From Naegleria gruberi (Eukaryota): a stretch of 64,000 bases of DNA. The notes beneath the pieces were generated by a model. That model worked only from the letters and a program-made list of their open reading frames with translations. It was not told the origin of the DNA and did not search any database. How positions within the stretch are numbered: the stretch's first letter is position 1; every line of letters begins with the position of its first letter. The stretch lies in the NCBI GenBank assembly GCA_000004985.1, contig GG738880.1. The stretch is one strand, 5' to 3'. This document shows positions 6,455 through 61,302 of this stretch, piece by piece. The position numbers and the translations under genes are program-made.

Positions 6455-8044
6455 ATGAACAATTCACTTCTCCAACCCATCTCAAGTGATATTTGGAAAC
6501 ATCAGATATTTCCCTATCATTGTTATGCTGATTATATTTCATTGAAGAGGACATGTAGATTTTTGTATAAATTAATTATGAACAGTTCCGATTCTAAAAG
6601 ATTGGAAGGGTTTTTAAAATTTTGTAGATTGATGCATCGGACTGATCATGATGAATATTTGTTCACTTATTTGGAGCCTATTAATGTGATGCCATTCTCT
6701 TGTAGAACTTCGAATACTCTTCCTGATTATTCTTCGCCAACAACTACTCCTACAACAAGAGTATTTCCTAATTTCTCAACTTATTATTTAAATTGGGAAG
6801 AATTTGAATATTTAATTGCTGTAATTCCTCATCATGAGCTGAGAAGGATATGGGATAAATTTATAGTTAGTCCTGTATTTAGAGGAAGATTGATAATATC
6901 TGAAGTTGACCGAGATGGGATTAGTGAAACAATTGTTAACAAAATATTGTTAAATGCTATTAAACAAGATCCTAGAAAGTTCAACTCAATCTCTAAATGG
7001 ATTTCATGTACTTTACCCAACTTGTTATGTCAAATATCAGACATGCAAGAGCTGATGTTTCAGTTGATTTTAGATGGCGCACCAATAGCATTGCTCTCTG
7101 ATCGACTCAGACACAACAAGGAATTTATAATAGAATTATTGAGGTACTGTAATATACCATTGAATGAATTGGAGGAACAATTTCAGTACGATGTTGATGT
7201 AGTTCTCCAATCAGTCTCCAATGATCCCAATAATTATACATTCTTATCCAATTCAATTAAATCAGAAAGATCAGTGACCATACAAATGATTAATAATGCA
7301 TACAAGATTAAGGACTTTACCAATTCCAATAAGACTTTTGTTAGAATATTCGAAAAATATATACCTATGGTATTTAGAAACGATAGGGAAATTATGGAAC
7401 TTTCACTCAGACAAGATTCCTCCATCATGCCTCTCGTATCGGATGCATTGAAGAATAATAAGGAATTTGTTGTGAATGCATTGAAAATTTCCACCACATG
7501 CTTTCCTCACATTTCCTTAGAATTAAGAAGTGATCCAGAAGTTTGTCTATTAGCACTGAGAAACTCAAATTCCAAAACCATGATCATGACACATATGAAT
7601 TGTCTTCTCCTCTACGACGAAGATTTTATGAGAGAAATAGTATCTATTGATGGCATGTTACTTTCATATGCACCAAGTGCAGAAATCATACAGAATCGAG
7701 ATGTTGTTTTAATTGCAGTAAAACAGAATGGATTCGCCCTCCAACATGCAGATAAATCATTGAGGAATGATGAGGAAATAGTGAGAGAGGCCATTATGCA
7801 GGACGGAGAAACAATCATGTTTGCTTCGGAAAGATTGCGAGACAATTTTGAACTAATGGCTGTAGCAGTAACTAAATCAAAAGTTGCCCTTCTCTATGCA
7901 AGTGAACGCCTCAAATCAGATGAAAATCTAGTTTCAATTTCAGTCTACAGTCACCCCAGTAGTTTAAAATTTGCCTCTGCACAGCTATTACAGAATAGCC
8001 AATTCATAGAGCATTTGATTAGAAATGGTGTGACTAACTATTGA
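6455..8044 (+). CDS. F-box-like N-terminus followed by tandem DUF4116-type repeats (529 aa)
   Basis: N-terminus DIWKHQIFPYHCYADYISLKRTCRFLYKLI is F-box-like. Then about eight ~35-aa repeats, for example DREIMELSLRQDSSIMPLVSDALKNNKEFVVNALK, DVVLIAVKQNGFALQHADKSLRNDEEIVREAIMQDGETIMFASERLRDNFELMAVAV and LLYASERLKSDENLVSISV. These fit the DUF4116 consensus (..a.kqng.aLqyAs.eLknDkefvl.Av..). Confidence 0.6.
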   Translation: MNNSLLQPISSDIWKHQIFPYHCYADYISLKRTCRFLYKLIMNSSDSKRLEGFLKFCRLMHRTDHDEYLFTYLEPINVMPFSCRTSNTLPDYSSPTTTPTTRVFPNFSTYYLNWEEFEYLIAVIPHHELRRIWDKFIVSPVFRGRLIISEVDRDGISETIVNKILLNAIKQDPRKFNSISKWISCTLPNLLCQISDMQELMFQLILDGAPIALLSDRLRHNKEFIIELLRYCNIPLNELEEQFQYDVDVVLQSVSNDPNNYTFLSNSIKSERSVTIQMINNAYKIKDFTNSNKTFVRIFEKYIPMVFRNDREIMELSLRQDSSIMPLVSDALKNNKEFVVNALKISTTCFPHISLELRSDPEVCLLALRNSNSKTMIMTHMNCLLLYDEDFMREIVSIDGMLLSYAPSAEIIQNRDVVLIAVKQNGFALQHADKSLRNDEEIVREAIMQDGETIMFASERLRDNFELMAVAVTKSKVALLYASERLKSDENLVSISVYSHPSSLKFASAQLLQNSQFIEHLIRNGVTNY

Positions 8045-9302
8045 GTGAGACTCACTAGGTATTGCGTTATAGAACTCTATTCATTGCACCAACAACAAAC
8101 ACAACAGTGTGGTTGCATTCTTAGGTTATCCTTCTAATGAGGCGGTGAGTATTCCTCTATCAACTACAGCGAACATCCATGAACAAACTACAGTACCCCT
8201 TAATTACTATTGTATTTCGCAAAAAGGAACGCTTTCAAAAAGTCCATCAATAACAGAGATTTTCCTTTTATTATAATAATACAATGCAGTACGGCAGAGA
8301 TGTTGTCTAAATCGGAGTCAATTTGTGTTTATGGTGTTTGTTGCTGCCAAATGCGTTTTGAGATCATGAAACCTCATTTCAGACAGTGGACGATTTAAGT
8401 GTAGCCACCAGGTAAACAACACTAAAGTTTCTCTTCATGGCAGGTAAGCTTGACCAATTGGTGTAATAGCCTTCGATTTTCAAATTTTTCACTAAGTTCC
8501 TCAATCAACACCAGTTAAAACCCTTATTCAAACCAGCGATGATAGTGCGGAACAATTACATCCATCTTCATTGCCATTTAGAAACGATTCGTGATTGGAT
8601 TGAAGAGAACGAAATGGACAGTAATCAGGTTACATTGCAATAATTTATTGTACGTCTTTGTAGTAACGATAACACATTGATAGATGATCTTATTATTCGG
8701 TGATGATTAATTTGAATGAATAATTGTTGTAACAGATAACAAGTGTTGTTTCCAGTTGCGAAGGTGCCGTGACTATGCCCAAAACAATTCGAATGGAAAG
8801 ATAAAGTTGAATTTTTGACCAAATTTTGGCATTTTATCCGCTCGCATCCTTTTTGATTTGGGATAATTCCACCACCATTCACTTAAGGTCAGAGCACAAA
8901 TGGGTTTATGTTATTAATAAGGCATCACCGAGGACATACTCACAACCTTCTCTCTTCACAACTGCATCTATTGCACTAATCTACAACCAGGTAACAACTA
9001 GGTAACAAACACTAAAAACACTAGTAAACTATGATGAACCACTTTAGAAAAAGGAAACACTACCAACAAAAAATCACAACTAGAAGCAGCCATCAATCTT
9101 TTCGCTACTATCACACTATTTGAAATACAATAGATCCAAATAACCAGGTTACCTCCATCCATTTTCTCAATACTCATTGGTTGTTGTTTGTCCTTACCCC
9201 TCTTTGTTTGAGAAAAAAGAAAATCACCAACACAACCTCCCACCCCTTTGAATGCTTCTTTAATGCATTTAACCACTAATTCATAACATTATCATCATCA
9301 TC

Positions 9303-11333
9303 ATGTCTACATTTGAAAATACATCCAACTCTTCTACTAATATATCTGGTCAGTCAAAGAAGAGTGTATCCTCACCGACATCATCTGCTGATCAATCTCT
9401 TCGTGTTGGTACAACCACAGCAAGTAAATCACAACATGAAGAGTTTGTCCAACATCCACCACATGTACAACAAAGTTATTCTTCAACCACATCTGTAGCA
9501 TCACACCATGAAGCCATGTCTACCAATAATACACATGCATATAAAAGCATGTCTCCTTCCTATGCAAGTCCAGTCCATCATGTTGGTCCTATTGCCACTA
9601 GTACTATTACTACTAACTATCAAAATAGCTCCACAACCGATAGTTCTCAACAAGGAGCAATAAGCAACCATCGTTTATCCAATCATAGAAACTCTCCGCC
9701 AACAAGTGCATCCTTCATTTCCAGAGGCCAAACTTTTGTCCAACAAGAAAATGAATCAAACCACTTTAATAACAACACAACAAAAACATCCAACAACCAA
9801 CACGTTCCTTCTTCATATCCATTGCATCATCAACATTCTAGCATGGTGAATGGTAACAGTGTTGGTGGAAACGGTACTACGACAAATCATTCTAACAACA
9901 ATATGGCAAGCATTCATCACCACGATCAAGACAAGATTGCATATCATTCAAATCAAAGTATGAATAGTACTAATGCATCATACAGTATGAACACTAATTC
10001 ATTTGATAACATGGGTTCGAGATCAATTTCACATTCATCAAATAATGCATCTATACATGATAAAAATCTATTACCTTCTCTTCATATATTGATGGATCCT
10101 CCTACTTCAACCTCACCAAGTAATCCAATTCCACATAGTAATAACTCTCGTGTCTATGCACCTCCTAGCAGTAATCCTAATAATGGTCACATGCGTCAAT
10201 CTTCATCAAATAATTTACAACAATCAAATTATAATATGAATCATCAACCCCCAATCACACCAATTCCTTATTCACAACATGTGAATGATTATCCTCCAAC
10301 TAATCATGTTCCTCCTCCATACATTAACAAGGCTTCACATCACATAGACATGTTTTCAAATCCACCAAATAATAATATCATTAAATCCTCACCATCATCA
10401 TCTAACATGGATACAATGTATGCACCTCGTCCTATCAGGAGTAGGAGTAATACAAGTGGTCCTAATAATGCATCATTTAATTCTCCTCAATCATCCTCTG
10501 TTAATAATCATCATCAAAATACTGACAGTACTGTTTACTCATTTGAACAACCAGCCAAAATTAAAAAGAAGAAAGCCCTTCCTTCTTCTAACGACGATTC
10601 GAATGATGCAGATAAAAAGAATTGGAAAAAGAAGAGATTATTTAGTATTGATGAAGTGACAGATCTTGTTGCATTTGTAAAACAACGTTCCGAGAATCAA
10701 GAATTAACACGTGATGTTAATTATGCTATATTTAAGGAATATGAGAAATTACAAGATGAAAGAAGAAGAGCAAGTGTTTATAGAAAGAAATATGTGCAAT
10801 TATTTGAAAGACATTTGATTTCAAAAGACGGCACAATTGACCCTTCACTCTTCCAAGAATATGATCAAAGAACATCTTCTACTTCTAAATCTAAAGGCTC
10901 ACATCCAGAAGATGCTCAAGAAAAGAGAAAATTCTCTGATGTTGAAGAGGATTCTAGCTCTGAGGGAAGTAATATTGAAGAAGAAAAGAAAACAAAAAAG
11001 CTTAAGAGAGAATACTCTGATGAGGAAGATGAAGAAATAGAGAATGCATCCCCATCTGAGGAAAAGAAAAAGAATATGAATATTTGTGTATCATATAAGG
11101 GAAAGAATTATTTACATTCTATAGAGAAGCAAATTCTCCAAAATTCAGATTCAATCCACAATTATTTCAACCAATTGGCAGTCTCTTCATTGTGTTACAA
11201 CAGCGATACAGAACTCATTAGAAGCGAGTCTATTGAATACTTTGACTATTCATTTGGTGAATTCATTCAAATCAATTCATTTTCCATTACTAGGGTTCTC
11301 AAAAGCAGTCCTGTAAAATTGAGAATAAACTAA
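9303..11333 (+). CDS. hypothetical low-complexity (Asn/Ser/His/Gln-rich) protein with a charged C-terminal region (676 aa)
   Basis: Long uninterrupted ORF. The N-terminal two-thirds is compositionally biased. The C-terminal part (...KKNWKKKRLFSIDEVTDLVAFVKQRSENQELTRDVNYAIFKEYEKLQDERRRASVYRKKYVQLFERHLISKDG...) is not biased, followed by acidic/Lys-rich tails. No family recognised. Confidence 0.6.
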   Translation: MSTFENTSNSSTNISGQSKKSVSSPTSSADQSLRVGTTTASKSQHEEFVQHPPHVQQSYSSTTSVASHHEAMSTNNTHAYKSMSPSYASPVHHVGPIATSTITTNYQNSSTTDSSQQGAISNHRLSNHRNSPPTSASFISRGQTFVQQENESNHFNNNTTKTSNNQHVPSSYPLHHQHSSMVNGNSVGGNGTTTNHSNNNMASIHHHDQDKIAYHSNQSMNSTNASYSMNTNSFDNMGSRSISHSSNNASIHDKNLLPSLHILMDPPTSTSPSNPIPHSNNSRVYAPPSSNPNNGHMRQSSSNNLQQSNYNMNHQPPITPIPYSQHVNDYPPTNHVPPPYINKASHHIDMFSNPPNNNIIKSSPSSSNMDTMYAPRPIRSRSNTSGPNNASFNSPQSSSVNNHHQNTDSTVYSFEQPAKIKKKKALPSSNDDSNDADKKNWKKKRLFSIDEVTDLVAFVKQRSENQELTRDVNYAIFKEYEKLQDERRRASVYRKKYVQLFERHLISKDGTIDPSLFQEYDQRTSSTSKSKGSHPEDAQEKRKFSDVEEDSSSEGSNIEEEKKTKKLKREYSDEEDEEIENASPSEEKKKNMNICVSYKGKNYLHSIEKQILQNSDSIHNYFNQLAVSSLCYNSDTELIRSESIEYFDYSFGEFIQINSFSITRVLKSSPVKLRIN

Positions 11334-11397
11334 AATTGTATCCTAATTTACTTTTTTAGAATATGATGAACAATTTAAAATATTTTCTCTAGTTAGC

Positions 11398-12000
11398 ATG
11401 CGAAAGGTAAATTCGGCAAAACGACATCAAACCAGTCAATTAAAAAAAATGAAACGAATCGTAACCTACGAGCATAACAATTCGAAACTTATTCTCTTCT
11501 TCTTATTATTGGCAGCTATCATCATCTACATCTCTAACTTTGTAAATTGTGATTGTTCATGGAAACTTCTTCCAAGATGCAAAACTCCAAGAAAAACCTA
11601 TCGACCAAAAACCAATGGATGTGGTCCTCAACAACAACTTCTTTCAGGACTATTAAATGTTGTCACTTCTTCAGTTTCTAGAGAATTTGTCGAATGTTGC
11701 AACCAACACGATCGTTGCTATGGACAGTGTGGTGTTTCAAAATCGGATTGTGATAAACAATTCAGAGCGTGTATGATCAACAAGTGTTATCTGGATCTTG
11801 CGTGTCGACTGAAAGCTTTTAGTTTATTCAATGCAGTCAGTCGACCAAATCCTTGGAGTTGTAGAGCTTACATTGGAGGTCAGATTGCCGCCTGTGATTG
11901 TTCATCACAACCAACAACAAACAATCAAACACCACAAGAAGAACAACCAATTTCCTTACCAGAACCTTCTGTTAAATTATATCGACTTAAAATCAATTAA
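11398..12000 (+). CDS. secreted phospholipase A2, group XII-like (start more likely Met at 11449: MKRIVTYEHNNSKLILFFLLLAAIIIYISNFVNC = signal/anchor)
   Basis: CCNQHDRCYGQCGVSKSDCDKQFRACM closely matches the group XIIA sPLA2 active-site block (CCNQHDRCYETCGKSKNDCDEEF, catalytic His-Asp). It lies in a Cys-rich setting after a hydrophobic N-terminus. The group XIIA comparison block is recalled from memory, not searched. Confidence 0.6.
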   Translation: MRKVNSAKRHQTSQLKKMKRIVTYEHNNSKLILFFLLLAAIIIYISNFVNCDCSWKLLPRCKTPRKTYRPKTNGCGPQQQLLSGLLNVVTSSVSREFVECCNQHDRCYGQCGVSKSDCDKQFRACMINKCYLDLACRLKAFSLFNAVSRPNPWSCRAYIGGQIAACDCSSQPTTNNQTPQEEQPISLPEPSVKLYRLKIN

Positions 12001-12365
12001 GACAAGTGAGGCGAAACTAAAAGTTGTACATTCTTGGAAAAATTCTTCCGAAATCTCAACGAGGAATTAATCATTAAGGATATCCGCTCCTCAAGATTCA
12101 TCAGGTCCAAATAATATAATAGGATTGGACTCCTCTCGGTGTACACCGGTGTACTTGAGTGGAATGAGGAAATTTTACTGTTGAAAATTCAGATAATATT
12201 TTGGCCGTATTGAATCTTAATTATAACACGGCCAAATTATTTTATATAAATTTGGGGTTCCACAAATAAGAATATATTAACTTCTATTTCAACACAGTGA
12301 AAAGTTTGTAAATACCATTACAAATATTATCAAGCTGCTTAAGATTAAGGTTTTAAGGAAATGAA

Positions 12366-12485
12366 TGGCTACGGCCATATCACGATGAATGCACCTCATC
12401 CCGTCCGATTTGAGAAGTTAAGCATCGTCGAGCCACATCAGTACTGAGGTTGGAGACAACTTGGGAACCTGTGGTGCTGTAGTCT
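12366..12485 (+). rRNA. 5S ribosomal RNA gene
   Basis: GGCTACGGCCATATCACGATGAATGCACCTCATCCCGTCCGATTTGAGAAGTTAAGCATCGTCGAGCCACATCAGTACTGAGGTTGGAGACAACTTGGGAACCTGTGGTGCTGTAGTCT matches the universal 5S blocks (GCCTACGGCCATAC, CCCGTCCGAT, GAAGTTAAGC, AGTACT, TGGGAA, GGTGCTGTAG). The 5' and 3' ends can pair as helix I. A T5 run follows. Confidence 0.85.
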
Positions 12486-12490
12486 TTTTA
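12486..12490 (+). terminator. Pol III terminator (TTTTT) immediately after the 5S gene
   Basis: gctgtagtcTTTTTac. Confidence 0.5.
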
Positions 12491-12635
12491 CTTTCATTAT
12501 TATAATAGTGCAGATTGTAAACGTAAAGGCGAACTGACTTGGGTTTATTTTTTGACACCTCTACCAGCGCCATGTTTAATAACTGTCATAATACTAAGGA
12601 AAATTTTATGATAAGTAATCGAAAAGAATTGTGAA

Positions 12636-12700
12636 ATCGGGTGTGGTATAGTGGTAGCATTCCAGACTGTCACTCTGGCGACCCGGACCTCCTACTCGAG
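12636..12700 (+). pseudogene. degenerate tRNA-Asp(GTC)-like element: intact 5' half and anticodon arm, no T-arm
   Basis: TCGGGTG TG GTAT AGTGGTAG CAT T CCAGA CTGTCAC TCTGG CGAC CCGGACCTCCTACTCGAG. The acceptor 5' strand, D-arm (A-box TAGTGGTAG) and anticodon stem-loop with GUC are tRNA-Asp-like. No GTTCGANTC B-box or T-stem follows, and no 3' acceptor strand is present. It lies 150 nt downstream of the 5S gene. Confidence 0.4.
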
Positions 12701-13043
12701 TAATAATTTTATATTTTCTAGTTCAATATTTATTATTTTTAGTTCAATTTTCATTTTTTGGTAGTTTAGATATTTTACTTGAATATTGTGTTTTTATTTT
12801 TTTTAAAATTTCTTCTATTTCCATTTTTAGAAGCCTCTGTTTGTACCACATTTTTTTTCACAGAGACAGATAGGTTATAGAAATTATCAAATTTCTAAAT
12901 TTCATCACCATCGACAACATAATATCAGATTAGAATCTTTCATTTTCGAAATGGTGTTTTAGATAAAAAGCCTAAATGCTAGTATAATTAAATCTCAATT
13001 TATTAAATATATATTAACCATTTTCAATGTCTACATTTTTAAT

Positions 13044-14324
13044 CTATTGATTTGGAAGTCTGAAATTCATTCTATCGATGTATAACCACAATTTTCTTGA
13101 ATCAATTTCTAATGGACAAGCATATGGAACATTCCAATCATTGGCAGTTTTACTACCCCATGTATGACTTAATAGTTTGACAGTTGAAGTGTAGAGAGCT
13201 GGATTCATTCTCATCTTTTGTTGCATTGGCAAGTAGTAGAACTCAACCATTGATCCAAACCCTCCACCAATGTTTGAGAATTGAACTTGAGAAACTGAGT
13301 TACCATCGAAACTAATTGGACAGCCAGCGAGAGAGGAATATTTGAATAGCTCATTAAGCAATTGATCGCAGTCTTGATCTGGAACACAGTTTTCAACAAC
13401 TACATATCCGAAACGATGGAAGAAATCAATGTGCTTTTGAGTTAGGAAATGATCATTCTCTTTCAATATTTGACTCAAGATGCTTGAGTTTTCTCCATTT
13501 TCTTCCATAATACTTTCGTATGGTTTCTCATTATAAAGACATTCACCTAATGGGGTCAATGGTACTAAATCATTTTCTGGGTGCAAATACATTTGCTCAA
13601 CTCTAAACTTGGTTCCAAAATCATCTGGATGTTCAAAAGTCTTTCTCTTTTCTCTCAATTTCTCAATTGTGTTTCGGTTGACTGGATCTGTACAACTGTA
13701 AGCATGATAAAACACTGAACGAGGTCTATCCATGTGATTGGCGTCTGAATTTCTGTGAGCCGTTCTGTTATCAAAAAAGATGAAATCTCCCTTCTTGATT
13801 GGAACATATTCTAAAGCATCATGCTCCTTTACAATCTTTCTCATATAGCCCAACATTTCGTCTGCATTCTCCAACTTGGTCAATTCAGAGCTTGGTGAAG
13901 GAGCTTTCCATTCTTGAGGAATTCTCTTAACTTTTCTAACCATTTCAAACAATGGCTCATCTTCCTCTTGATTAAATCTAATGTGATAAGAACTAATCCA
14001 TGGAGATTTAACTCTGAAACCTTTTCCATTTCTAACTTTTTGATCCATGGCAGGAAAATATCTTTCTGCAACGGAGGCAAATCCAGGAATTACTTCCAAA
14101 CCTCCTTCTTTCTTGTTTGGATCAGAATCACCATCTGTTAAACAAACCATAGATTGAAAAGGTCTGAATCTGTCCAATTCTTCATAGGTCATGTCAGATT
14201 TTAATTTTTTCCACAAATTGTAAGGCCAAGAATCCAAATGAAGACCAGTTCCTTTTTGAATAAGGAGGGCTTCTTCTTCTTCTGTGGTTTTTACCTTTTG
14301 TGGTTGTTGATTAGTAGTGCTCAT
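13044..14324 (-). CDS. phytanoyl-CoA dioxygenase (PhyH)-like 2OG-Fe(II) oxygenase family protein (ORF extends to 14375; MSTTNQQ at 14324 is the more likely start)
   Basis: GGLEVIPGF and KGDFIFFDNRTAHRNSDANHMDRPRSVFY resemble PhyH-family blocks (G.LevvPGSH ... GD.v.F...l.H.S..N.S...R.a.y). The C-terminal half (FLTQKHIDFFHRFGYVVVENCVPDQDCDQLLNELF) resembles the N-terminal part of a second PhyH-like domain. Confidence 0.4.
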   Translation of the reverse strand: MSTTNQQPQKVKTTEEEEALLIQKGTGLHLDSWPYNLWKKLKSDMTYEELDRFRPFQSMVCLTDGDSDPNKKEGGLEVIPGFASVAERYFPAMDQKVRNGKGFRVKSPWISSYHIRFNQEEDEPLFEMVRKVKRIPQEWKAPSPSSELTKLENADEMLGYMRKIVKEHDALEYVPIKKGDFIFFDNRTAHRNSDANHMDRPRSVFYHAYSCTDPVNRNTIEKLREKRKTFEHPDDFGTKFRVEQMYLHPENDLVPLTPLGECLYNEKPYESIMEENGENSSILSQILKENDHFLTQKHIDFFHRFGYVVVENCVPDQDCDQLLNELFKYSSLAGCPISFDGNSVSQVQFSNIGGGFGSMVEFYYLPMQQKMRMNPALYTSTVKLLSHTWGSKTANDWNVPYACPLEIDSRKLWLYIDRMNFRLPNQ

Positions 14325-20356: not shown

Positions 20357-21517
20357 ATGCCGAAGGAATCAAAGAAGAAGAAGAATAATACTAAAATTGA
20401 AATCACTCACGAGATGATGGTAAGTAAACGAAATTCACATCCGTCGTCAACTTTATCATAATGTAAAGAAACCATACTTTTACTGTCCTCAAACTCTTGC
20501 TGCAAGATTATTGGGAGTCAGCATTAGCACATTGAAGAGAAGATTTTATGATCTCCATATTGGAAGGTAAGTTTTCCATACTGGAATCAGCCCAGTTCAA
20601 TTATTGTTATTACTATTATATTGTAACACGTCATTTATATTTTTCATAATAACCAACATGTTTGTAAAAACTAACACGGTTTCTGAAATATTTCACAATC
20701 CAATACAATTCTGTTACTTGATCGTTAACAATATAGATGGCCATATCAATGCATCTCTTTAAGTGAAAGAAAGAAGAGTATCTACTTTCTTATGAATGAA
20801 ACTGAACCTGAGGATGAAAAGGAAATTGATGAAAAGACAATGCATCACCTCAGACATGCATTCAAAGATGCTAGTAAGCCACTTCTCTCAATGAATGTTA
20901 ATCAAACCACTCAATTCCACTTTTGCTCATTCGTTGCTCAAGAAGAAGAAAATGCCAACTCTGACCATTCCAATTCCTTCCAAGAATCCAATGGAAAGGC
21001 CTTCACTGCACAAGGTCAAGCTCCACATCTTGGTGGTGGCAATGGAAAGAAGATTGTTATGCGTGAGATGGAACTTGGTAAAAAGGAAATGATACAACGT
21101 TCCAAGTCATCTCATTCATTGAGTTCTCTTTCTGGAGATAACCATCCACCCTACCACCCTTACAACTCCCCTGCTTTGACCGCTTTTCCATTGAAAAAGT
21201 CTTGTGCGGTCAGTGATAATGCTTCCAATATGTTGACTAATACCTATACTACTCAACCTCATGGTATTAGTGCATTATCATCTAACATTAAGACTTTTTC
21301 ACCTACCTCACCACACGGTGTTTGGCAGAGTTGCAATACTATGAGTTTGTCAGTTAACTATCCTTCACAATGTTACGTTTCACAACACTCACCATTGAGT
21401 TGTGGAACAACAAACTCTTCCTCTCCAAATTCTCCTCCAGCAATAATGTTTGGAATGGGTCACGAAAATCATGTCATTTTGCCTGAGATTCGTATTCAAG
21501 ACACCATTCAACATTAA
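20357..21517 (+). CDS. RWP-RK domain protein, 3 exons (20357..20419, 20469..20566, 20737..21517)
   Basis: Exon 1 ATG..GAGATGATG|GTAAGT. A 49-nt intron ends ..gtaaAG. Exon 2 encodes KPYFYCPQTLAARLLGVSISTLKRRFYDLHIGR, which is the RWP-RK core (compare the paralog at 24482). Its donor is AG|GTAAGT. A 170-nt intron ends ..aatatAG. Exon 3 begins in phase (R)WPYQCISL... and runs in frame into ORF 20792..21517. Confidence 0.7.
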
Positions 21518-21781
21518 GCTGTGTTGGTGACAAATTACATCATTGAATTCAATTGCATTCAATGATGAGCATTTATATATACCTCAAACTCTGTGTATTC
21601 CAGTTGGAGAGGACGAAAACCTAGCTGTAATTTATTGCTATCAATTACAGAATGTTGACAGTTCAACTCCATGAGAACCTTCTCTTTAGCTGTGGAATAC
21701 AATCAGTGTAAACAACAACAAAACAATCCTAATAAATTATTTATTCACTTAAAAAGATCTTTTGAATGGTTTTATAAGATT

Positions 21782-21850
21782 CGGTTTTTATTGAGCGACT
21801 ACAGCTATTTACTGTAAAGATTTAGGTGGGTACGGCGACATAAAATCCCC
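21782..21850 (+). repeat. copy A of a ~70-nt conserved noncoding element (candidate small ncRNA or cis-element)
   Basis: cGGTTTTTATTGAGCGACTACAGcTATTTACTGTAAAGATTTaGGTGGGTAcggCGACataAAAatcccc. It is nearly identical over ~45 nt to copy B at 23459. Confidence 0.4.
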
Positions 21851-23458
21851 ATTTTATTGCTCGAGATCTAAGGAATGATCTTAAAAGTGTTTTCAGGTAA
21901 TTAGCGAATTCATTTTCATTAAAAGGATATGGGTGATCGATCTCCTTCACCAATCTTACTGCATAGGGAATAAACATTCAGGTTGAGCAAGAATCTTAAA
22001 ACCATACGATGCAATTATTTTTTGTGATTGTGAAATTCTATTGGTGATGGTTCACATTATCTGAAAGTGATTCTGCACTGCTTTTCAAATCCACTTCTCG
22101 TTTGAATTAAATACTGTCATCAATTATCGCTCATTGTCTACACTTGGAGGAACATATGACAACTCAATGAAGAATTTTTGTAATTCAGACATATTGAAGA
22201 ATTGAGAAAATGTTTTTTAAATCCATGACCATCTCTTTCTAAGGGAAAATGTAAAGCAGTCAGTCCAAAAGAATTTGTTAAAATTGTGTGGAATCTTAAT
22301 ATTGATTTTCAATCCACTGTAGAGCTTTTAATTCTGAAATATGTTAATTGACCATAAACGCGCATCATTCGCCAACCTGTCAACAATCATGCCATAAATC
22401 CTTAATTAAACGCTGCTAAACATTCCAGTTGCATTAATCCAATAATTGTAAAGGAAGAGGCTTTGTTTCGAATGCTAATTTCTTCAGTTGATTCCCAAAG
22501 GTTTCGATGGTGATGGAATTTTTTTGAGTTTTCTATTGAAAAGATGAAACAATTATTTGCTTCGACACTCCTCAGAATAAGCAAACTCAAATAAAACAAT
22601 GTGGTCAGAGGTTTGGATTTCTATTGATTAAACAAATAGAAATTAACCCAAAAAAGAGCAACTCCCGTTCGATCCCAAAACTAAAAAGATTCTTGTCATA
22701 AATGGTCAGGATTTCAACCGATCTAGATTTTGTTAGATATCAAATCAAATATTACATCCTGCCGCTATCCAGGCAAGAATTCATATGTTAACCCAATGTT
22801 AATGGTACTTAACTCTTTTCAAATCAATTAAGAAACAGATCTAAGATTTCTTCCGCTTCCATAGAACTAGGAAATTGTTTACCAAATACTCAACAAAAGA
22901 AAGCAACTCCACACCATCTAGAGGAAGAACATCCTCAAATTCTAGCTGTCATCATTTGTCTAATTTTGAGAATGGTAATCCAATAGAAAAATAATATCTA
23001 ATTTTTAGGAACAAGATAACGGATTGGAAGTGTAGCATGTTGGTGATGACTCTTTTCTCATTGAGTGGGCTGTGCTTAATTGAAACATCAGAAATTCAGT
23101 TGTAGTTACTGAATTGCAAAGTTGAAGATTCACATCATCGATCCTTCTCTCCACAACAAGAGGAGAAGAACCAAGTCAATTTTTGCTAAAATGTTCATTT
23201 CCTTGAAAATGATGTTGTTGCTTGTGTTTAAAACTCATTGTATTCTACAGCTCATTGAGAAGGTTCTTTTTGTGAGGATGATAATTGCCTCCGTAATCAA
23301 GAGTCAATAGTAACTTTACACTACAGGAAGATAACCAGCACCCAGGTAGTGAGAATAGTGAGAAAATGAGAGTTGTGTGTAAAGGCTCATTCAAAAGCCT
23401 CATGAATGGTCCAGAAATGATATCGTAGTTGAATATTAGGATGCTCCAAGGTCAAGAT

Positions 23459-23536
23459 ACGGTTTTTATTGAGCGACTACAGTTATTTACTGTAAAGATT
23501 TGTGGTGGGTATTATGCGACGCAAAAAAATCACCGT
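23459..23536 (+). repeat. copy B of the same ~70-nt element
   Basis: acGGTTTTTATTGAGCGACTACAGtTATTTACTGTAAAGATTTgtGGTGGGTAttatgCGACgcAAAAaaatcaccgt. The 5' ACGGTTTTT can pair with the 3' AAAAAAA..CCGT, closing the element with a terminal stem. Confidence 0.4.
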
Positions 23537-24481
23537 CTCAGTTCAGTCATCATCCAATCCTGGACAAAACATTCGAGTCAACTCGTTGCCAAAAATGCAT
23601 TGACTTTCTTTGTGAGTTATAGACAGTCATCCTTCACTATTTTGCATTCCTTCCTTGGTTCTAATGTTGAATTACAACGAAACGCAGAGTAATCATTAGC
23701 CAAAGATTTGTATCGAATCCTTTAAAGATTTCTTCAGTTCCACTTGCTGTTTTCGAAAAATTTGACGCTCAACCCCATCTAAGCCATTAAAAAATCAGAT
23801 TATGCCTTCGTTTAAATACCATTTATGGATGGCGAACAAATAAAAAACCAGAATCTCAGTTTGCAACCCAGAAATTTCTAACAATATCGTTGTATTCTTC
23901 GTTGATGGATTATGTTGTTGATTAGCTGCATCTAATCATCAAGAGATATGAAATAATAAATAGAAAGACTTGCTCCTTACAAGGTTTGTAGATTTCAGTT
24001 AATTTACATTTTACCTCGTATCATATACCAATGTTTGACCTTCATACAGCAAAAATATCAAAACCCACGCTACAAAAAACAGAGATTGCAATAAAGCATC
24101 TGGAGTAATTCCAAATGTGTAAAATCCTTCGCCCTCTAGTGACCATATTTAGATAGAATCAGCGAAAATTTTTGGTCGTGCCTATTCCACATAAATTCTG
24201 GCCCACACAGAAAAACAGCAACATGAAGCATAAATGAAAATCCGTACAGATGCATTATAAAACCCTCTCCGAACCATTGGCTCACTCTTCTCACTTTAAA
24301 AAAACAAAACAACAATAACAACTATCACTGACCACAGTAATACTACTATTACGTGTCATTTCAAAGATACTTTAAACCACCGCAATTATTTCACTCTCTC
24401 ACGTGTAAGCCAACTAAGTAACCTTCCAAACACAAGAAAAATCAAAAAGTTACCAACCTACTACTGCTAATACCCAACACA

Positions 24482-47929: not shown

Positions 47930-48002
47930 TATACCCTGTGGGACTCGAACCCACAACCCCCGGCTCCGTAGGCCGATGCTCTTCCAATTGAGCCAAGGGT
48001 AC
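47930..48002 (-). tRNA. tRNA-Arg (anticodon ACG)
   Basis: Reverse complement: GTACCCT TG GCTC AATTGGAA GAGC A TCGGC CTACGGA GCCGG GGGTT GTGGG TTCGAGT CCCAC AGGGTAT A. All four stems pair, and the D-loop, T-loop (TTCGAGT) and anticodon loop are canonical. Confidence 0.85.
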
Positions 48003-52632: not shown

Positions 52633-55600
52633 ATGTCATCACAAGAGTTGTTGGAGATTGACAATCATAGTACGGAACATTCAAATGTTAACACTTCCAT
52701 CACTTCTCATCATCACGAATATCTTCACTATGGAGATTTCATTTCACTCTTCACTGAATCGAGTGGTGGAAGTATTGGATTTCTCAGTGTGGATGGAATT
52801 AATATTAATTGTAATAATATTCAAGGGTTTGTTTCTCTTTCAAAACTTAATAATTTTAATAATTTAATTAAATTGATAATCAATACATTAATCATTGGTT
52901 GCCAACATTAACGTTATTTAAACAAAATTAAAAAATGTTCGGAAAACAATTATTGGATCGCGATTGATATCTTATGTTTATTAATAATAATAATTGAATG
53001 ATGAATTGATAATGATAATAGGAATGTAAAACAAATTCGTTGTGGTCTTTCAGAGGCTGTGTCCTTGACTGGACATGAATCAAATCAACAACAAGCCTCT
53101 CACAATCAACAACAAACAACTACTTCCGACTCAAAGACAAAGCAAATTCCTCCCACCTATATGATCTCTAACTTTCAACAATGTGTTTTTCAAGTTTGTT
53201 ATCCGAAGAGTTATTCTGCCTTGAAAAAGTACAAACAACATTTGGATGAATTGGAAATCAAGGCTAGTGGTAATAGTGCAAAGAAGAGTCAAGACAATTC
53301 TGACAATGATTCGAAGAAGGTTATTCATCATGAGAGCAATGAAGTTGCTCAATTAAAGGAACGAATGGAACGTGAGATTCAACAAAATGAATTGGAAGCT
53401 CTGAGAAATTATGGAAAACCTGTTACATATGGCTCATCAATTCAATTACTTCATGTACAAACTCAAAGCTTTTTGACTGTTGCGAGAGAGTCTGCAGAAA
53501 TGCAGAAGGATTGTCTCAGATTATCATTGGATGATGTTGGATCGAAGTATTCACATTTTTCTCTACTTCCATATTTCAATTATCGTAGAGATGGAGAAAT
53601 TGTGAAACTTTCTGACAAGATTAGAATTTGGAATAGAAAATCTGCACAATATGTACAATTTTCATACTATAGATATAGTAATGCTGTAGAATCAGGCTTG
53701 AAGAATGCTCAAAGTATTGGTTCAAACGTTAATGAGATGGATAAATCATCTTACACACAATTAGCTAAAGAAGCTGTAAAGAATAATGCCAACCTTAAAA
53801 AATTCACATACGACAATAGAAGAGAAGTTAACATGTCAGCATCGAGTGCATTCTCACATTGGAATTTGAGAGTATTTTCACCTTGTAAAGATTCCCCTAC
53901 AGAAAGTAACAAATTCCTCAAAGCAGGTGATATAATAAGAATTTATCACAAAGAATTTGATGGTTTTTTAACTGTCAATGAAAAGACTGGAAGAGTCAAG
54001 CTGAAAAAGTCATTTATCAATCCTCTTATTGGAAGCTCAGCAAATGGAGAGGCATCTTTTTCAAATTCAGGTTTAAGTTCAATGAAGGGATCAGGTATGA
54101 AGTCATTCTCATCCAAATCAAGTCTGGTCTCTGGTCAATACTCTAGTTCGTTCAATCTGGCAGATTCCTTCTCATTGAGCAGTAAGAGTAGCCTGTCACT
54201 GGTTGACTCTTCTGAGAATACTCTTTCTGGTGTTATACAGGATGACTTTGATGTAACTTGTCATACATTGTGGCAAGTAGAAATGTTGGACTCAACCAAA
54301 GGAGGAGAGTTGAGGAAGAATTTCGTTTATAGGTTGAGACATGTCAGTACAGGAAACTATCTCATAGCAAGAATGGCCACTGATGATGAAGAGAAAAAAG
54401 AAAGAGATGCAGAAGATGCTGAAATTTCTGAATTCTCTCACAGTTCTTTCTACATTTCATCTGAATCAAGCTCTAGTTCTATTCAATTGCATAATACAAC
54501 AAGCCCACTTTCTAAAACACCAATCAAAACCAAGAAGGAGAATAATCTTAGCTTGTTCGTAGAACCACAAGATAATTGTACAAACCCTCTCAATATGTTG
54601 TTTAACTTGCAAGATTCCATGCTTTCTACAGATCACTCTGAGTTTTTCTTGAATGGGCAATTCAGACTCAGACATTATCTAACTAATACTTGGTTGCATT
54701 CAGTTAATTCGCAGAAAGCTTTTTCTAAATCATCTGAAAGAGCCTCTCTCAAATCTCATTACTCACCAGTATGTACCACTCAAGGCATGAGAGAGGAGGA
54801 TGTATTGACTTGTGTGTTGGTTTCCAGACCAGAAAGTGAAGACTTGTTCACAGTGCAAAGTTACATCCCAATTCTCAAATACTTTACTCAAAAACTTAAT
54901 GATGGATCTGTAAATAGGAGTGACATCAAGTTGTACATTGACGTAATTTCTAGTTGTATAAGATTTTGTACTAGCAGTTCTGAAATGGATCCCCTCCTGA
55001 GAAGTGGTATTCCAATCAAAAAAAACCAAAAATTAATGAGAGAAAAGGGTGTCATTACTATTGTTATGGATATTTTGATGGCACTTATTTCTAAGAATTA
55101 TGTAAAATTGGAAGAGTTATCAACAATTCAAGAAAGGAGTGACAAGATTGACTTTTTTGATGTAATTCAGTATTCATACAGATTCATTAGACAAGTTGTA
55201 CTTACAAACGAATCAAATGGTTTATTTATGGCACAGTACATTAACTTTATTCAGACCAACATTGAACATAGTATTAGTGCATCTGAGGCTCTTTTGCAAA
55301 TTTTATCCAACAATTTTTCCTTGTTGAATAAGATTACAGAGGACCAAATTGACTTTTTCATCAAATTATTATTCACAAACCCTACTAGTTCTAGTTCATT
55401 GAAGCAACATACAGAAAGATATGGAGGTTCTCTTAAGAAAGCTGTCTACTTATCCTTCTTGACCAGTCTAATCATATGTGAAGGAAAAACTGTCGTGAAA
55501 AACCAAAAGTATATTAGTAACCTGCTCTTCTCAACATTCAAGGAGCAAATGTTGAAGGTATTTGTAATACCAAGAATTAGAAAATCAGATGATAAGGTGA

Positions 55601-58600
55601 TTATCGATGTGAATCGTGTAGAGTATGAATTGGTCAATTTTTCAAAGTCTGCCACCAATATCGATCATATTACTTATTCAAAAAATAATTTTGAACTAAT
55701 GGTCTTCTTCCAAGAGCAAATCAAACTCTTTGCTGCCATGTGTACCGGAAGTAATGAAGCTACCGAAATGACAAGAGCAGCCATTATTCAGCTATTTACT
55801 TTTGAAATTGTGTACAAGTGTGTTGCAGAGTCGGCACTTACTCCAGCCTTGAGAACTTCTTTTGTCCATCTGCTTATGCACTGTTTCGTAGACACTGAAA
55901 AGAACGAAAAGAGAACATTTATTGAATTGACTCGTAAACTTGAATCCCTATCTGGAAAGAGTGTTCACGAATATACATCCCGTGAGCTTGGTGAGGTCAA
56001 GCAATTTCTAGAAGTTTTCTTCAGAGAGAATACCTCATTAGATATTGGATACGAGAAGAGAGATGTCAATAATTTTATTCTTTCCCTTGCTCAGTTGTGT
56101 GCAGGAATGATTGAATTTGGTATTTTCAATTTGAAAGACTTTGAAGAGACAGATCTCCTTGTTTCATTATTTAACATTCTCAGATCAGACAACGACACCA
56201 AAAATGGCTTACCATTACGTGATGAAGAAAGGTTCAAGCAATCAGAAGAAAACGTAACTGTAACTCAAATCAAGATTGAAATTGCCAAGATATTTCACAT
56301 GTTGCTAGACTTGCTGTTAGATAAGAGAATTACGAAATTCCTTCAATTCTTTTGGATGAAATACAAAATTGATGATATCAAGATTGTAATAGAGGAAGAA
56401 TCTGACTCATTGCTTGGTGTGACCTCCAATGACAAACAACAAGCACAATTGCTAAATTTACGTAAAAAGGAATTGGATAGAATATTCCAAGAAATGGACA
56501 CAAAGGAAAATCAGGTTTTGAAAGATATTTTCGAGAATACTACCCTTCCTTTCAAGATTATGTCAGAGTTTTCACTTAAAATTATCAACTTGACCTCCTA
56601 TGAGAATCAAGAACTATCCACAATATGTCTTCGTTTATTGATCAGAAGATACAGAGCAGCTGACGAGCTTGCAGAAGCTCTACCAAAAGTTGAATTGATT
56701 GTCTCAAGAGAAATGGCTCGTTCCTATGACCATTTGAGAAAACAGACTGCCGACTTGAGAAGTATTTTTGGTTATGGTAGAAGTAATTTCCTAGGTGCTC
56801 GTCACATCAGTGAATACGAAGTTAAAAAAGCTATGAAAGCCCTTGGAGAAGTTATTAGTGATATCAAAACTAATGGAAAGAGAAGTCAAAGAATTATTCG
56901 TAATCTCAATTTATTTGAACTCGTTTTGTCTGTTTTGAGGAAGGAGTGGATGGTTCCAACTGATATTCAAGAAAATTGCCTGACCATTTTAACAGAGTTT
57001 GTTAGAGGTAATCCAGACAATCAGAAACTTCTCTTCCCTTACATTGAATTTTTCATGAGACTGATCACAGAGAACAAGAAGCTTAGCAAGTATATTGTTC
57101 TATTGATGTGTGAAATTGTTAAGAATAATAGAACATTGTGCAGTATTTTGGAAGAAAAATTAATAGAGCAATACTTTGATTTGATTGCTGAACAGAGAAG
57201 TGCCTTCATGTTGCTTTTCTTAAGAACCATTTTGGCAACTCATAATAATACACCAATCAAAAGAAACCAATCCCTCATTACCAAATATATGGTTGAGAGA
57301 AAGAAAGATGTTTGTGTTCTATTCAAAGACGAAGAAGGTATGAGAGAACGTAACAATAGAATTACCAAGGAAGAACACAAAACAGAACCAGATGGTATTC
57401 TCAATTATCACATTGCACTATTGCACTTGATGGCTACTGCTGCTGATGGCAAGAATAGAGAAAGTGAGTTGCGTTTACAAACATTGTTTTCTTTTGAAGA
57501 GTTGTTGGAACAAGTTGTTTCTCCTTTCACATTGGCCATGATTAGAAATCCTCTCATCAAGATTATCAATGAAGTCTATATCAATGTGGAAAAGGCAACT
57601 GATGACCACCAGGAAAAGAAAACCGCCAATGTACATCATCCTTTGATGTATAAAATGTTTTCAAAGATGATTAGAGAGTTGGAATTTGTGGAGATGCTTC
57701 AAACTCTAGATGTGAATGCAATTGTAGGGTCAGAAGGAGCTACCAACTCACCTTCTCCCTCTGGTACTGGTGCTTCTCTATCTGCTAGCAGTGCTACTAA
57801 ATTATCGAATGCTAGTGTCAGACCTTCAATGAACCTTACCAATCAAGCACTGATTAGACAGAGTAGAGCTATAACCAATAGAAATTCATCCATTGCACCT
57901 AAAATGCAAGTAACTGAAGAGGATTTGGAAAAATTCCATGTTGACAATTACTATATATTCGAAGTTATGATTCCAGTTGTTCAGAATTATTTCCACTTGC
58001 ATTTCCCTCCTCCTAATCTGTTAAAGGAACAACTCGATGTTGCAGAAGATTTATTGCTGAAACTCATTGATTTACACAAATTCACGGCAAATACTGACCA
58101 AAGAGAACAAATTTACAAGTGTATTACTGCCATGTGGAAGAAGAGTATGTCTTCAGAGTCACAATTAGCCATTACCAAGTTCGTAACAAACAAGAACACA
58201 AAGGCAAAGATGACAAGATCCAGATTTGAAGTATCTTCTACAGTAGAAACTGATGAGTACATTCACAAGAGCTATACAAAGTATTTGCAAAAAAGAATTA
58301 TTAACAAGGTGGAAGAATTTTCGCACTTTAATAGGATTGGTGCTCTCTTTGAAAAGTATAACGGATTTGTGAAGGTACTTGTTAGAGCCCTCAGAAAGAT
58401 TAATACACCTCTATTGAATTACAGTCCATCCCTTCTTGAAGTGGGACTTTTGAGTATGGAAATTCTCAAAGATATTGTCAGATCTCAGAATAAGAGAGCT
58501 AAAGAGGTGAAACAAAAGGGAGAGAACGATGTTCCAGAAATTGAAAATTTGAACTATGTGGAAAATAAGCTTCCAGTAATGATCATTGAATTGATGACAT

Positions 58601-61302
58601 CATTTAATCCTGCTATTGTTAGATCTGCCATAGATCTTGGTATCTTGATTTTGAACCGTGGTGATAAGGCAATACAGGATGAGTTTTATAGAATATTGAC
58701 AGAAACTGACTCGTCCTACTTCTTTGAATCATTGAGAGATAGAATCCGTCTTGGTAAGACAGAAATCAAGGAGAGAAAGAATTACCTCAAGAAGAAAAGG
58801 GATAAAGACTATGCCTTGTTCAAACAACGTCAAAGACAAGAAGTTGCCAAGGTTCGTGCTAAGGATGAAAATGATTCCTCCCGACCAATGGAAGAGGAAG
58901 AAGAAAGAGATTTACAAGAGGACTTTGTTGAAATGGGACATATTGAATTACTTTTCGAGTTTTTGAGACTTTTATGTGAAGGACACAATGTTGAAATGCA
59001 AACACTTCTCTTAAATCAACCAGTTAATACTCTGAACGTGAATGTTGTTACAGAAACAATTGAATATATGATTGCTCTAGAGAAAAAGATTGATTTTGAT
59101 AACGTTCAAATTGCTATTCAAGGTTTCAAGACCTTGACAGAATTCATTCAAGGCCCAGCTCTTGTCATCCAACAAGCTATTGGTACTTCTCCGAGATTCT
59201 ACGCCAGACTGGTCAATGAAATCATGTCTAAAACATATGAAGATGGAAACTTGCTAAAACAACAAGAACTTGGATTGAAGAGGGAAGTTTTACTTACTCT
59301 CAATGCTCTTCTAGAAGGAATGAACAATAGTGTATTTGATTTTATGAGACATTCCCTGAACTTTGATGAATTGGAGCATTTCCTTTTGTTCTCTGCCAGA
59401 TTTTTGCATTCTCTAGAAACCAAACATGAGAACTCTGATGCAAAGGACGAATACAATGAAATCAAGCAAAGGTTGAGAAGAGATTTTGATCATCACTTCC
59501 TTCATGAAGCCACACGTGACAAGGCTAATCCAGTTATTGCAGAAGATTACATTGCAGTCTATATGCCAATGATCAAGAATTTATTGAAAGAGACTGGTAA
59601 TTTTGCCTTTTTCTTGCTTAACATTTTCAGAGATGGTGAAAGAGAAAATTTGAGAAATATTTCAAGAAGTGCCTTTATTTCTGTAGAGGAAGAAAACAAA
59701 CTTTTAAGGATTACCAACATGTTGGATAATCATTCTCAATTAGTTTCAGTATTTTCCGAATCGACAGCAAGTATTGAAGTGTTGCGTGATAACAAGATTG
59801 AGAAGATTTACTTTTCCAAACCAACCATATGCAACAATTTGATGGACAAGGCAAGAAGTAATTATGTAAACTCTCTGGATGTCATGGCACCTGAAGAGAA
59901 AGTTCGTACTCTTTACAACCATACCTTCAGTATTTTCCAAGTTGAAATGGAGCATTATGAATTGATGAAGAAAAAGTCCACCATCAAGGATAAATTAGAA
60001 GATCTAGTTGGTATAGCCAACAAACACACAGAAGAAGTGACAGAGTTTGTGCCTACAATGGCTCAACTGAGAAATAAGTACAAGAGGAAAAAGAAACTCT
60101 CCATTGGAACTAGTTCTAAAAACAGGGACCAAACAGCAAGTTGGGAATTTATTGCTCACTGGTGGGACAGAATTCGTTTATTATCTTTTATATTTTGTGT
60201 GGTTCTTAACATTTTCGTTTTAGGATTTTTGAAGAGACTCTACTCAGCAAACACAGTAGATGACATTCCAGTACCTGGAGATTTGGATTTTGATATTACG
60301 TTGGCATCAAAATATCCTACAACAAGAAATTTGGCTGGTGATATTATTATAACTATTCTGGGAGCCATTCAATTGATAACAACAGCATCATTGGCCATTA
60401 TTTACGCAAAAGTTTTTATTACTCTTGAAGTGAAGAAGAGATTCAAACTCAAAAAGAGAGAGAAATGGGAAAATATTCCAAGAAATAGAGAATTCTATTG
60501 GAAATTTATCTTTTACGCACTTCAAGATTTACAAATGTGGTTCTTTGTACTGTACTTTGTTCTCAGTGTATTAGGATTATTGATATCTCCAATAGTTTAC
60601 AGTATTCAATTGTTCGAAATTGTTTTCAGATTTAAGAGTTTGAATGACGTGTTGAGGGCTGTCATTTCCAATGGAAAAAAGCTCTTTTTTGCAGGCATGT
60701 TACTTGGAATAACCATGTTCTTGTTTGGATTGCTATTCTTCTCATGGTTCTCTAATGATTTCACACTTGAATCTAATGGAACAAAAACATGTGAAAGTGT
60801 GTTGGAATGTTTTGTGACAATGTTTGACTATGGTTTCAGAAGTGAGTCATCATGGGAAAATATGTATCCACACAATCCAACTGTTGGAAGGGCCATCCTA
60901 GACTTGGCATTTAACATGATTGTAATCGTGTACCTTTCTAACGTTGTGTTCGGTACAATTCTAGATTCTTTCCAAGAATTGAGAGCAGCAAGAGAGGAAC
61001 GTAAGAATGAAATTAGAGAAAAGTGCTTTATATGCGCTCTGGAAAAGAGTAAATTTGATACAAAAGCCAATGAAGGAATTACCTTTGAAAAGCACATTAA
61101 GGAAGAGCATTACTTGTGGAATTATGTCTACTTTTTAATTTACTTGTACGAGAAACCTGAAACTGAATATACAGGTGTTGAAAGTTATATTTTCGAAAAG
61201 TGTGAGGAGAATGATGATGTAACAAGCTTCTTCCCAATATTTAGGTCTAAAACAATTGAGGAAAGCGAACAAACAAAGGTTTCATTAGGAGGATCGGATT
61301 AA
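52633..61302 (+). CDS. inositol 1,4,5-trisphosphate receptor-like Ca2+ release channel (IplA-like): a short first exon (52633..~52826) plus a large exon to 61302; intron boundaries unresolved
   Basis: Exon 1 LHYGDFISLFTESSGGSIGFLSVDG matches the IP3R N-terminus ([27 protein letters not shown]). Main ORF: FQQCVFQVCYPKSYSALKK (compare FRDCLFKLCPMNRYSAQK); an MIR-like region; C-terminal multi-TM channel region; and CFICALEKSKFDTKANEGITFEKHIKEEHYLWNYVYFLIYL, which is the IP3R C-terminal tail signature. IP3R comparison sequences are recalled from memory. Confidence 0.8.

Follow-up and report, generated by a model that had tools for sequence, protein, structure and literature searches.

A full-length and most likely functional 5S rRNA gene shares one intergenic spacer with a tRNA-Asp-like element that lacks a T arm in a 64-kb stretch of Naegleria DNA (the window, by which we mean the whole stretch analyzed). 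The explanation that we favor, at a probability of roughly 0.8, is that a working dispersed 5S gene lies beside a tRNA-Asp gene that was killed by a local lesion of its T arm and that the adjacency of the two is incidental. This reading removes a false lead, in that the locus would hold an ordinary Naegleria 5S gene and a single broken tRNA-Asp, not a SINE family or a Pol III hub, and the annotation of the locus should list a 5S gene and a tRNA pseudogene.

The locus and its 5S rRNA gene

The window is assigned to the nuclear DNA of a Naegleria species because the proteins encoded on either side of the spacer match Naegleria best, because its GC content is ∼34%, and because its open reading frames (ORFs) are long, uninterrupted, and intron-poor. 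About 27% of the window falls outside long ORFs. By Pfam analysis, every ORF of at least 250 aa resembles an ordinary cellular gene, with domains that include ankyrin, DUF4116, F-box, epimerase, pseudouridine synthase, and SNF2, as well as Myb, XLF, EGF/Kelch, and those of an IP3/ryanodine-receptor-like channel. The 22 ORFs of the window that were searched (21 of at least 250 aa and a 200-aa phospholipase A2-like one) contained no reverse transcriptase, integrase, or transposase domain.

Several of these genes were recorded in passing. The IP3/ryanodine-receptor-like channel is encoded by an uninterrupted ORF of 2747 aa at 53059-61302 (+) with RIH, MIR, Ins145_P3_rec, RIH_assoc, and Ion_trans domains, and a 529-aa protein encoded at 6455-8044 (+) carries seven DUF4116 repeats (Pfam, 8.5e-56). 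The longest stretch of the window that is free of ATG-initiated ORFs of at least 150 aa (21518-24481, 2964 nt) may contain small or intron-containing genes, and just ahead of it, at 21453-21584, is a weak H/ACA snoRNA-like match (SNORA15, 25.7 bits versus a GA of 47).

The spacer that holds the 5S gene and the tRNA-like element (12001-13043) is 1043 nt long, has a GC content of 32%, and is bounded by two convergent ORFs. The features of this locus are as follows.

11398-12000 (+): upstream flank, group XII secretory phospholipase A2-like protein (PLA2G12-family), 200 aa (Pfam PF06951, 2.4e-12)
12367-12485 (+): full-length 5S rRNA gene, 119 nt (Rfam RF00001, 105.4 bits versus a gathering score of 38)
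12485-12489 (+): T5 run, the predicted Pol III terminator of the 5S gene (read from the sequence)
12637-12700 (+): tRNA-Asp(GUC)-derived element without a T arm, most likely a pseudogene (Rfam RF00005, 24.4 bits versus a gathering score of 29)
12644-12654 (+): intact A box, TGGTATAGTGG (sequence)
12662-12678 (+): anticodon arm, CCAGA-CTGTCAC-TCTGG, with a perfect 5-bp stem (Rfam alignment and sequence)
12679-12692 (+): apparent lesion, the 14-nt connector CGACCCGGACCTCC (Rfam alignment and sequence)
12693-12700 (+): 3' acceptor strand TACTCGA plus the discriminator G, G73 (sequence pairing)
13044-14324 (-): downstream flank, convergent PhyH/Gig2-like dioxygenase (Pfam PF07350 and PF05721)

The original prediction, which placed a well-formed 5S gene with a T5 terminator between a secreted PLA2 gene and an oxygenase gene, was therefore borne out, both by the score of the 5S gene (105.4 bits versus 38) and by the Pfam assignments of the two flanks. 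The PLA2-like protein is 100% identical to the ENA protein P0019, and the dioxygenase is 99% identical to P0001, a protein from the ENA metagenome ERZ929261. More distant homologues of the dioxygenase are found in N. fowleri and N. lovaniensis (66% identity in each), in N. gruberi (60%), and in Willaertia magna (∼50%). Synteny around the homologues that were examined (L001, L004, and L006) is not kept: the N. fowleri (L001) and N. lovaniensis (L004) loci have different neighbors and gene order and contain neither a 5S gene nor a tRNA, and beside a 71%-identical ENA homologue (L006) an unrelated neighbor begins 32 nt past the stop codon.

The Rfam match of the 5S gene extends over the full length of the covariance model (positions 1-120 of 120, E = 4.4e-22), and in the cmscan alignment all helices of the three-way junction are present with zero non-canonical pairs flagged. 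By eye, AGTTAAGC in the internal control region matches the box A consensus quoted in PMC3369914, and the box C region, GAGGTTGGAGACAACTTG, is two positions off the consensus quoted in the same paper. The gene is identical to its counterpart in an ENA contig (L021) across all 91 nt covered, and 118 of its 119 nucleotides are identical to those of the 5S gene in a JGI contig (L011) whose flanks are unrelated, the similarity between L011 and the window ending 2-3 nt beyond the gene. From its sequence, this 5S gene is most likely functional, in which case Pol III would transcribe it from the internal control region and terminate at the T5 run.

Two RNA genes in the window reach the Rfam gathering threshold, the 5S gene at 12367-12485 (+) and a tRNA at 47930-48002 (-), so this is the sole 5S gene within 64 kb. 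The N. gruberi genome contains 279 putative 5S genes that lie off the rDNA unit (PMC3369914), and these are distributed among more than 90 scaffolds, with typical spacings of kilobases to hundreds of kilobases (PMC3369914, Table S1). When JGI metagenome contigs were scanned with a 24-mer taken from the 5S gene of the window, 14 loci were found, each with a single 5S gene and with flanks that are mutually unrelated. Given the 279 dispersed copies in N. gruberi and these 14 metagenomic loci in unrelated flanks, a solitary 5S gene is ordinary, and Naegleria 5S genes as a rule lie among protein-coding genes. The earlier description of the gene as isolated thus holds in that it is solitary in 64 kb, but not in the suggestion that this is unusual, since Naegleria 5S genes are dispersed genome-wide.

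The gene in the window resembles the dispersed copies of N. gruberi (PMC3369914) in being a solitary Pol III gene of ∼119 nt, located off the rDNA unit and between protein-coding genes, in ending at a run of T, and in having a gene sequence that is common to the copies and flanks that are not. We see no substantial difference between them, and the gene in the window would be one more copy. Dispersed 5S genes in the same arrangement are also found in S. pombe and Yarrowia lipolytica (PMC2566860).

An assembly from a related strain provides a view of the same locus. The ENA contig L021 (ERZ929261 k127_118581) corresponds to positions 8954-12457 of the window, is 97.6% identical to it, and ends inside the 5S gene, a break that we attribute to a short-read assembly meeting a dispersed repeat. 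A second ENA contig, L005, corresponds to positions 14554-12924, so the ERZ929261 contigs leave 12457-12924 uncovered, and look-ups of small ORFs that span this gap in the related strain gave no match. With a divergence of ∼2.4% between the strains, 64 nt would also be too few to reveal constraint on the tRNA-like element. Since the related strain, at 97.6% identity, has a 5S gene at the same locus, we regard the gene as a stable resident of the spacer at 12001-13043 and as one among many dispersed copies. More generally, short-read assemblies fragment at dispersed 5S copies, and L021 is an example. The length of the L021 alignment (3524 versus 3497) implies indels, perhaps within the low-complexity protein encoded at 9303-11333.

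Other contigs with 5S genes also attracted our attention. A group of JGI VFQM/VFQO contigs (L007-L010, L012-L016, L018, and L019) comes from an AT-rich eukaryote (33-40% GC) with solitary 5S genes; the full-length copies are identical to the 5S gene of the window at 89-93 of 119 positions, and each copy has unrelated flanks. The contig L020 (LLBY010927159.1, 51% GC) has a 5S gene with the same 24-mer in GC-rich flanks, and ∼190 nt downstream of it is AACGCTAAAAAAGTAACAGTTTCTGTACTTTATTGGTA, which we take to resemble a spliced-leader sequence of euglenozoan/kinetoplastid type. A linkage of 5S and SL RNA in L020 is possible.

A tRNA-Asp-like element without a T arm

The tRNA-like element begins 151 nt past the end of the 5S gene, on the same strand, with a T5 run and then a T6 run between the two. 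Its GC content is 58%, versus 32% for the spacer. In the RF00005 alignment, the element covers model positions 1-48 and 66-71, with 8 unaligned bases in place of 17 T-arm positions. The Rfam tRNA model thus recognizes it as tRNA-derived, as had been anticipated, but at 24.4 bits the match stays under the gathering score of 29.

The 5' half of the element is that of a tRNA-Asp. The 5' strand of the acceptor stem is TCGGGTG (12637-12643), positions 8-9 are TG, and the A box, TGGTATAGTGG, fits the A-box consensus TRGYNNARNGG. The D arm has the stem GTAT/GCAT, with one A-C mismatch, and the D loop AGTGGTA; position 26 is T. The anticodon GTC is found at 12669-12671, in the 7-nt loop CTGTCAC with U33. 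Past the anticodon arm, the 14-nt connector stands in place of the 21-22 nt expected for a variable loop plus a 17-nt T arm, and no B box or T-loop motif (GGTTCGANTCC-type) occurs anywhere in 12300-13400. After the connector, TACTCGA pairs with 12637-12643 at all seven positions, by five Watson-Crick and two G-U pairs, with a probability of 0.008-0.017 under the null (random window positions at a plausible offset). The original prediction had described a complete tRNA-Asp 5' half and GUC anticodon arm followed by neither a B box nor a T arm; all of this was seen, but the element is not a bare half, as the 3' strand of its acceptor stem is present.

A sensitive Rfam scan found no second tRNA match at E ≤ 10 in 12480-12900, and a sensitive scan of the whole window identified the element as its sole sub-threshold tRNA match. 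Standard ARAGORN did not call the element, even when thresholds were lowered to 80%. The metazoan-mitochondrial mode of the same program called an mtRNA-Asp(gtc) with a TV-loop at 12635-12702, a call that carries little weight because this mode made 19 calls in the window. The three-arm fold of the element has a free energy of -5.9 kcal/mol versus -18.3 kcal/mol for a competing hairpin, which is the minimum free energy (MFE) structure and has an MFE z-score of 0.2; this thermodynamic test is weak either way, since real tRNAs often misfold in silico. Downstream of the element are only T4 runs, at +7 and +14, versus the T5 runs found within 3 nt of the 5S gene and of the tRNA-Arg gene of the window.

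That tRNA-Arg gene, at 47930-48002 (-), is a canonical tRNA-Arg(ACG) (62.8 bits, named by ARAGORN) with a T5 run 3 nt past its end. As the sole intact tRNA of the window, it serves as an in-genome reference for Pol III terminators.

These data bear on the possibility that a part of the spacer with a higher GC content resembles a tRNA by chance alone. A chance origin would account for a score under the Rfam gathering threshold (E = 1.1 over 4227 families in the whole-window scan), for the MFE z-score of 0.2, and for the 19 calls that the permissive ARAGORN mode made in the window. When the tRNA model alone is considered, however, only ∼2.6e-4 matches of this kind are expected per 64 kb. The 29-mer GGTATAGTGGTAGCATTCCAGACTGTCAC, which runs from the D arm through the anticodon arm, is present in a single copy in the window, and its expectation in shuffled sequences is 0. 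A chance match would also have to bring together, in the correct register, an A box, an anticodon stem paired at 5 of 5 positions, a loop with U33 and GUC, and an acceptor stem paired at 7 of 7. A chance resemblance is unlikely, and we give it the lowest probability of the explanations considered.

Origin of the element and of its proximity to the 5S gene

Based on its sequence features, the element at 12637-12700 is most likely a tRNA-Asp pseudogene. Because the acceptor stem closes at 7 of 7 positions (P ∼ 0.01), we infer that the element descends from a complete nuclear tRNA-Asp(GUC) gene. Its T arm would then have been deleted or scrambled by a local event that cost a net ∼7-8 nt between the 5' strand of the T stem and the 3' acceptor strand. 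Such a lesion would have destroyed the B box and left TFIIIC with no anchoring site, and an RNA without a T arm would be expected to escape normal processing or use. It is on these two grounds, the lack of a B box for TFIIIC and of a T arm for processing or use, that we class the element as a putative pseudogene. Read-through from the 5S gene into the element appears unlikely, as the 5S terminator and the further T6 run stand between them.

The damage looks local, caused by one indel or replacement and not by diffuse decay, since positions 1-48 contain a single stem mismatch, with an intact A box and a perfect anticodon arm, and the acceptor stem closes. The earlier suggestion that the element did not arise by simple point decay agrees with the state of positions 1-48 and with a GC content of 58% in a spacer of 32% GC. 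We regard the lesion as probably recent, because the rest of the element is nearly undamaged and still stands out in GC content from the spacer (58 versus 32%), but the high GC content and the kept stems could alternatively reflect selection on the element, not youth. As in other tRNA pseudogenes, the isoacceptor is recognizable, an internal promoter box is lost, the score is below threshold, and there is a single copy in the window; the difference is that this element is damaged in its T arm alone, and its A box and three remaining stems are essentially intact. A split, permuted, or intron-containing tRNA was considered and rejected, as neither a T-loop motif nor a convincing 3'-acceptor candidate was present in 12300-13400, an interval that extends ∼340 nt upstream and ∼700 nt downstream of the element.

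The original prediction had likened the tRNA-like segment to the heads of tRNA-derived SINEs or to recombination relics and had seen in the cluster a hint of a former Pol III hub or of a target site for tRNA-directed retroelements. In this type of explanation, the segment is a SINE head or a retroposed copy of a tRNA, and the spot is one at which Pol III-directed retroelements insert. It would explain why 48 nt at the 5' end are intact, A box included, and the 3' part diverges, why the element is followed by AT-rich DNA that contains a 21-nt tandem duplication, and why a mere 151 nt separate two Pol III-type elements. The B box that is required for transcription from a SINE head is absent, however, and the matching 3' acceptor strand, which a SINE head does not need, points to a once-complete gene. 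No poly(A) or A-rich tail, target-site duplication, or flanking direct repeat was found around the element, and the ORFs of the window encode no reverse transcriptase or integrase domain.

Copy number also argues against a SINE. The element occurs once in 64 kb, and the contigs of the viral, JGI-metagenome, and prokaryote-genome collections contained 0 matches to TAGTGGTANNNNNCCAGACTGTCACTCTGG, which is a weak negative because these collections are poor in Naegleria DNA. The same limit applies to TCGGGTGTGGTATAGTGGTA, for which there were 0 matches in genome contigs, a collection equally described as poor in Naegleria DNA and thus again a weak negative. Based on the single copy in the window, the missing B box, the retained 3' acceptor strand, and the lack of matches in the collections searched, the proposal of a SINE head was not upheld.

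The 5S genes elsewhere provided a view of whether such pairs recur. No tRNA match was found, even at E ≤ 10, in 15 other 5S-bearing loci that together span ∼42 kb, and there is no recurrent pairing of a 5S gene with a tRNA-like element among them. These 15 loci, together with the lack of reverse transcriptase, integrase, and transposase domains in the ORFs searched, lend no support to the idea of a Pol III hub or retroelement target, and we consider the SINE and target-site explanation as a whole improbable.

Another explanation is that the element is an expressed nuclear RNA without a T arm, either as an unusual tRNA-Asp, as a regulatory tRNA mimic, or as an element that provides the 5S gene with a Pol III promoter or a boundary. 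In favor of a functional RNA are the preservation of the stems other than that of the T arm, the closing of the acceptor stem with G73, the GC-rich island (58%) within a 32% GC spacer, and the acceptance of the element as a TV-loop tRNA-Asp by the mitochondrial mode of ARAGORN. The element also has GUC, C38, and G10-U25, which are identity elements of yeast tRNA-Asp. N. gruberi was reported to have no detectable TFIIIA (PMC3369914), and in such a lineage the element could act as a landing pad for Pol III factors beside a 5S gene.

Against a functional RNA, there is no B box for TFIIIC, and the three-arm fold is 12 kcal/mol worse than the competing hairpin. We know of no cytosolic translation system that uses tRNAs without a T arm. 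A role in serving the 5S gene is countered by the position of the element downstream of that gene and past the T5 and T6 runs, where it can be neither a leader nor a read-through partner, and by the other 5S copies, including the 118/119-identical one in L011, that are without such a companion. Although we hold an expressed RNA to be very improbable, an element that proved to be expressed or conserved would be a nuclear tRNA-like RNA without a T arm and, hence, interesting.

The pseudogene explanation requires no functional coupling between the two genes, as their adjacency could follow from the scarcity of non-coding room for small genes in a compact genome. With ∼280 copies of the 5S gene and spacers of ∼1 kb, ∼2-3% of the non-coding DNA is 5S-containing spacer. 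If hundreds of tRNA genes and pseudogenes are distributed over such a genome, we estimate, roughly, that several spacers per genome would be occupied by both a 5S gene and a tRNA sequence by chance.

Comparison with known tRNA-related systems

One parallel is the dicistronic tRNA-5S genes of Yarrowia lipolytica (Acker et al. 2008, PMC2566860), a species whose 5S genes are also scattered and in which a 5S gene and a tRNA-type element are likewise close neighbors that share a strand. The Yarrowia tRNA is intact, precedes the 5S gene on its 5' side without an intervening terminator, and drives a fused transcript (PMC2566860). In the window, the tRNA-like element is 3' of the 5S gene, 151 nt away, has lost its B box, and is separated from the 5S gene by the T5 and T6 runs; in addition, the pairing is unseen at the 15 other 5S loci. 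A dicistronic gene of the Yarrowia type was rejected on the basis of the reversed order, the terminators between the genes, and the defective tRNA-like partner.

The element shares with the T-arm-less (TV-replacement-loop) mitochondrial tRNAs of nematodes and other metazoans the combination of acceptor, D, and anticodon arms with an unpaired connector. Typical TV loops are shorter than the 14-nt connector of the element. Unlike these mitochondrial tRNAs, the element is nuclear, is GC-rich (58%), and lies among Naegleria nuclear genes, and it has the 5' part of a cytosolic eukaryotic tRNA-Asp. Its location in a nuclear gene block led us to reject a mitochondrial-type T-arm-less tRNA.

The snRNA genes of trypanosomatids use the A and B boxes of upstream tRNAs or tRNA-like sequences (PMC10781861), and these promoter elements, like tRNA-derived SINEs, resemble the situation in the window in that a tRNA-related sequence that is not a tRNA gene lies beside another Pol III gene. 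The SINEs have A and B boxes and are multi-copy, whereas the element is without a B box and is present in a single copy in the window. The trypanosomatid companions lie upstream of the snRNA genes, whereas this element is downstream of the 5S gene and, again, has no B box. In trypanosomatids, the tRNA-like companions are oriented divergently to the snRNA genes. A companion promoter in this style was rejected, since the interval from the 5S gene to the element is too short for a divergent gene, and a B box is absent.

Two minor observations concern the DNA beyond the element. Directly downstream of it, at 12708-12749 (+), is the 21-nt tandem duplication TTTATATTTTCTAGTTCAATA / TTTATTATTTTTAGTTCAATT, which is AT-rich; each copy contains TTCAAT, a faint resemblance to a T loop that carries no significance in DNA so rich in AT. 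The 3' end of the 5S gene with its terminator (TGGTGCTGTAGTCTTTTTACTT, 12472-12493) has a 73%-identical echo of 22 nt at 12759-12780, 287 nt downstream, which is probably a product of chance in AT-rich sequence.
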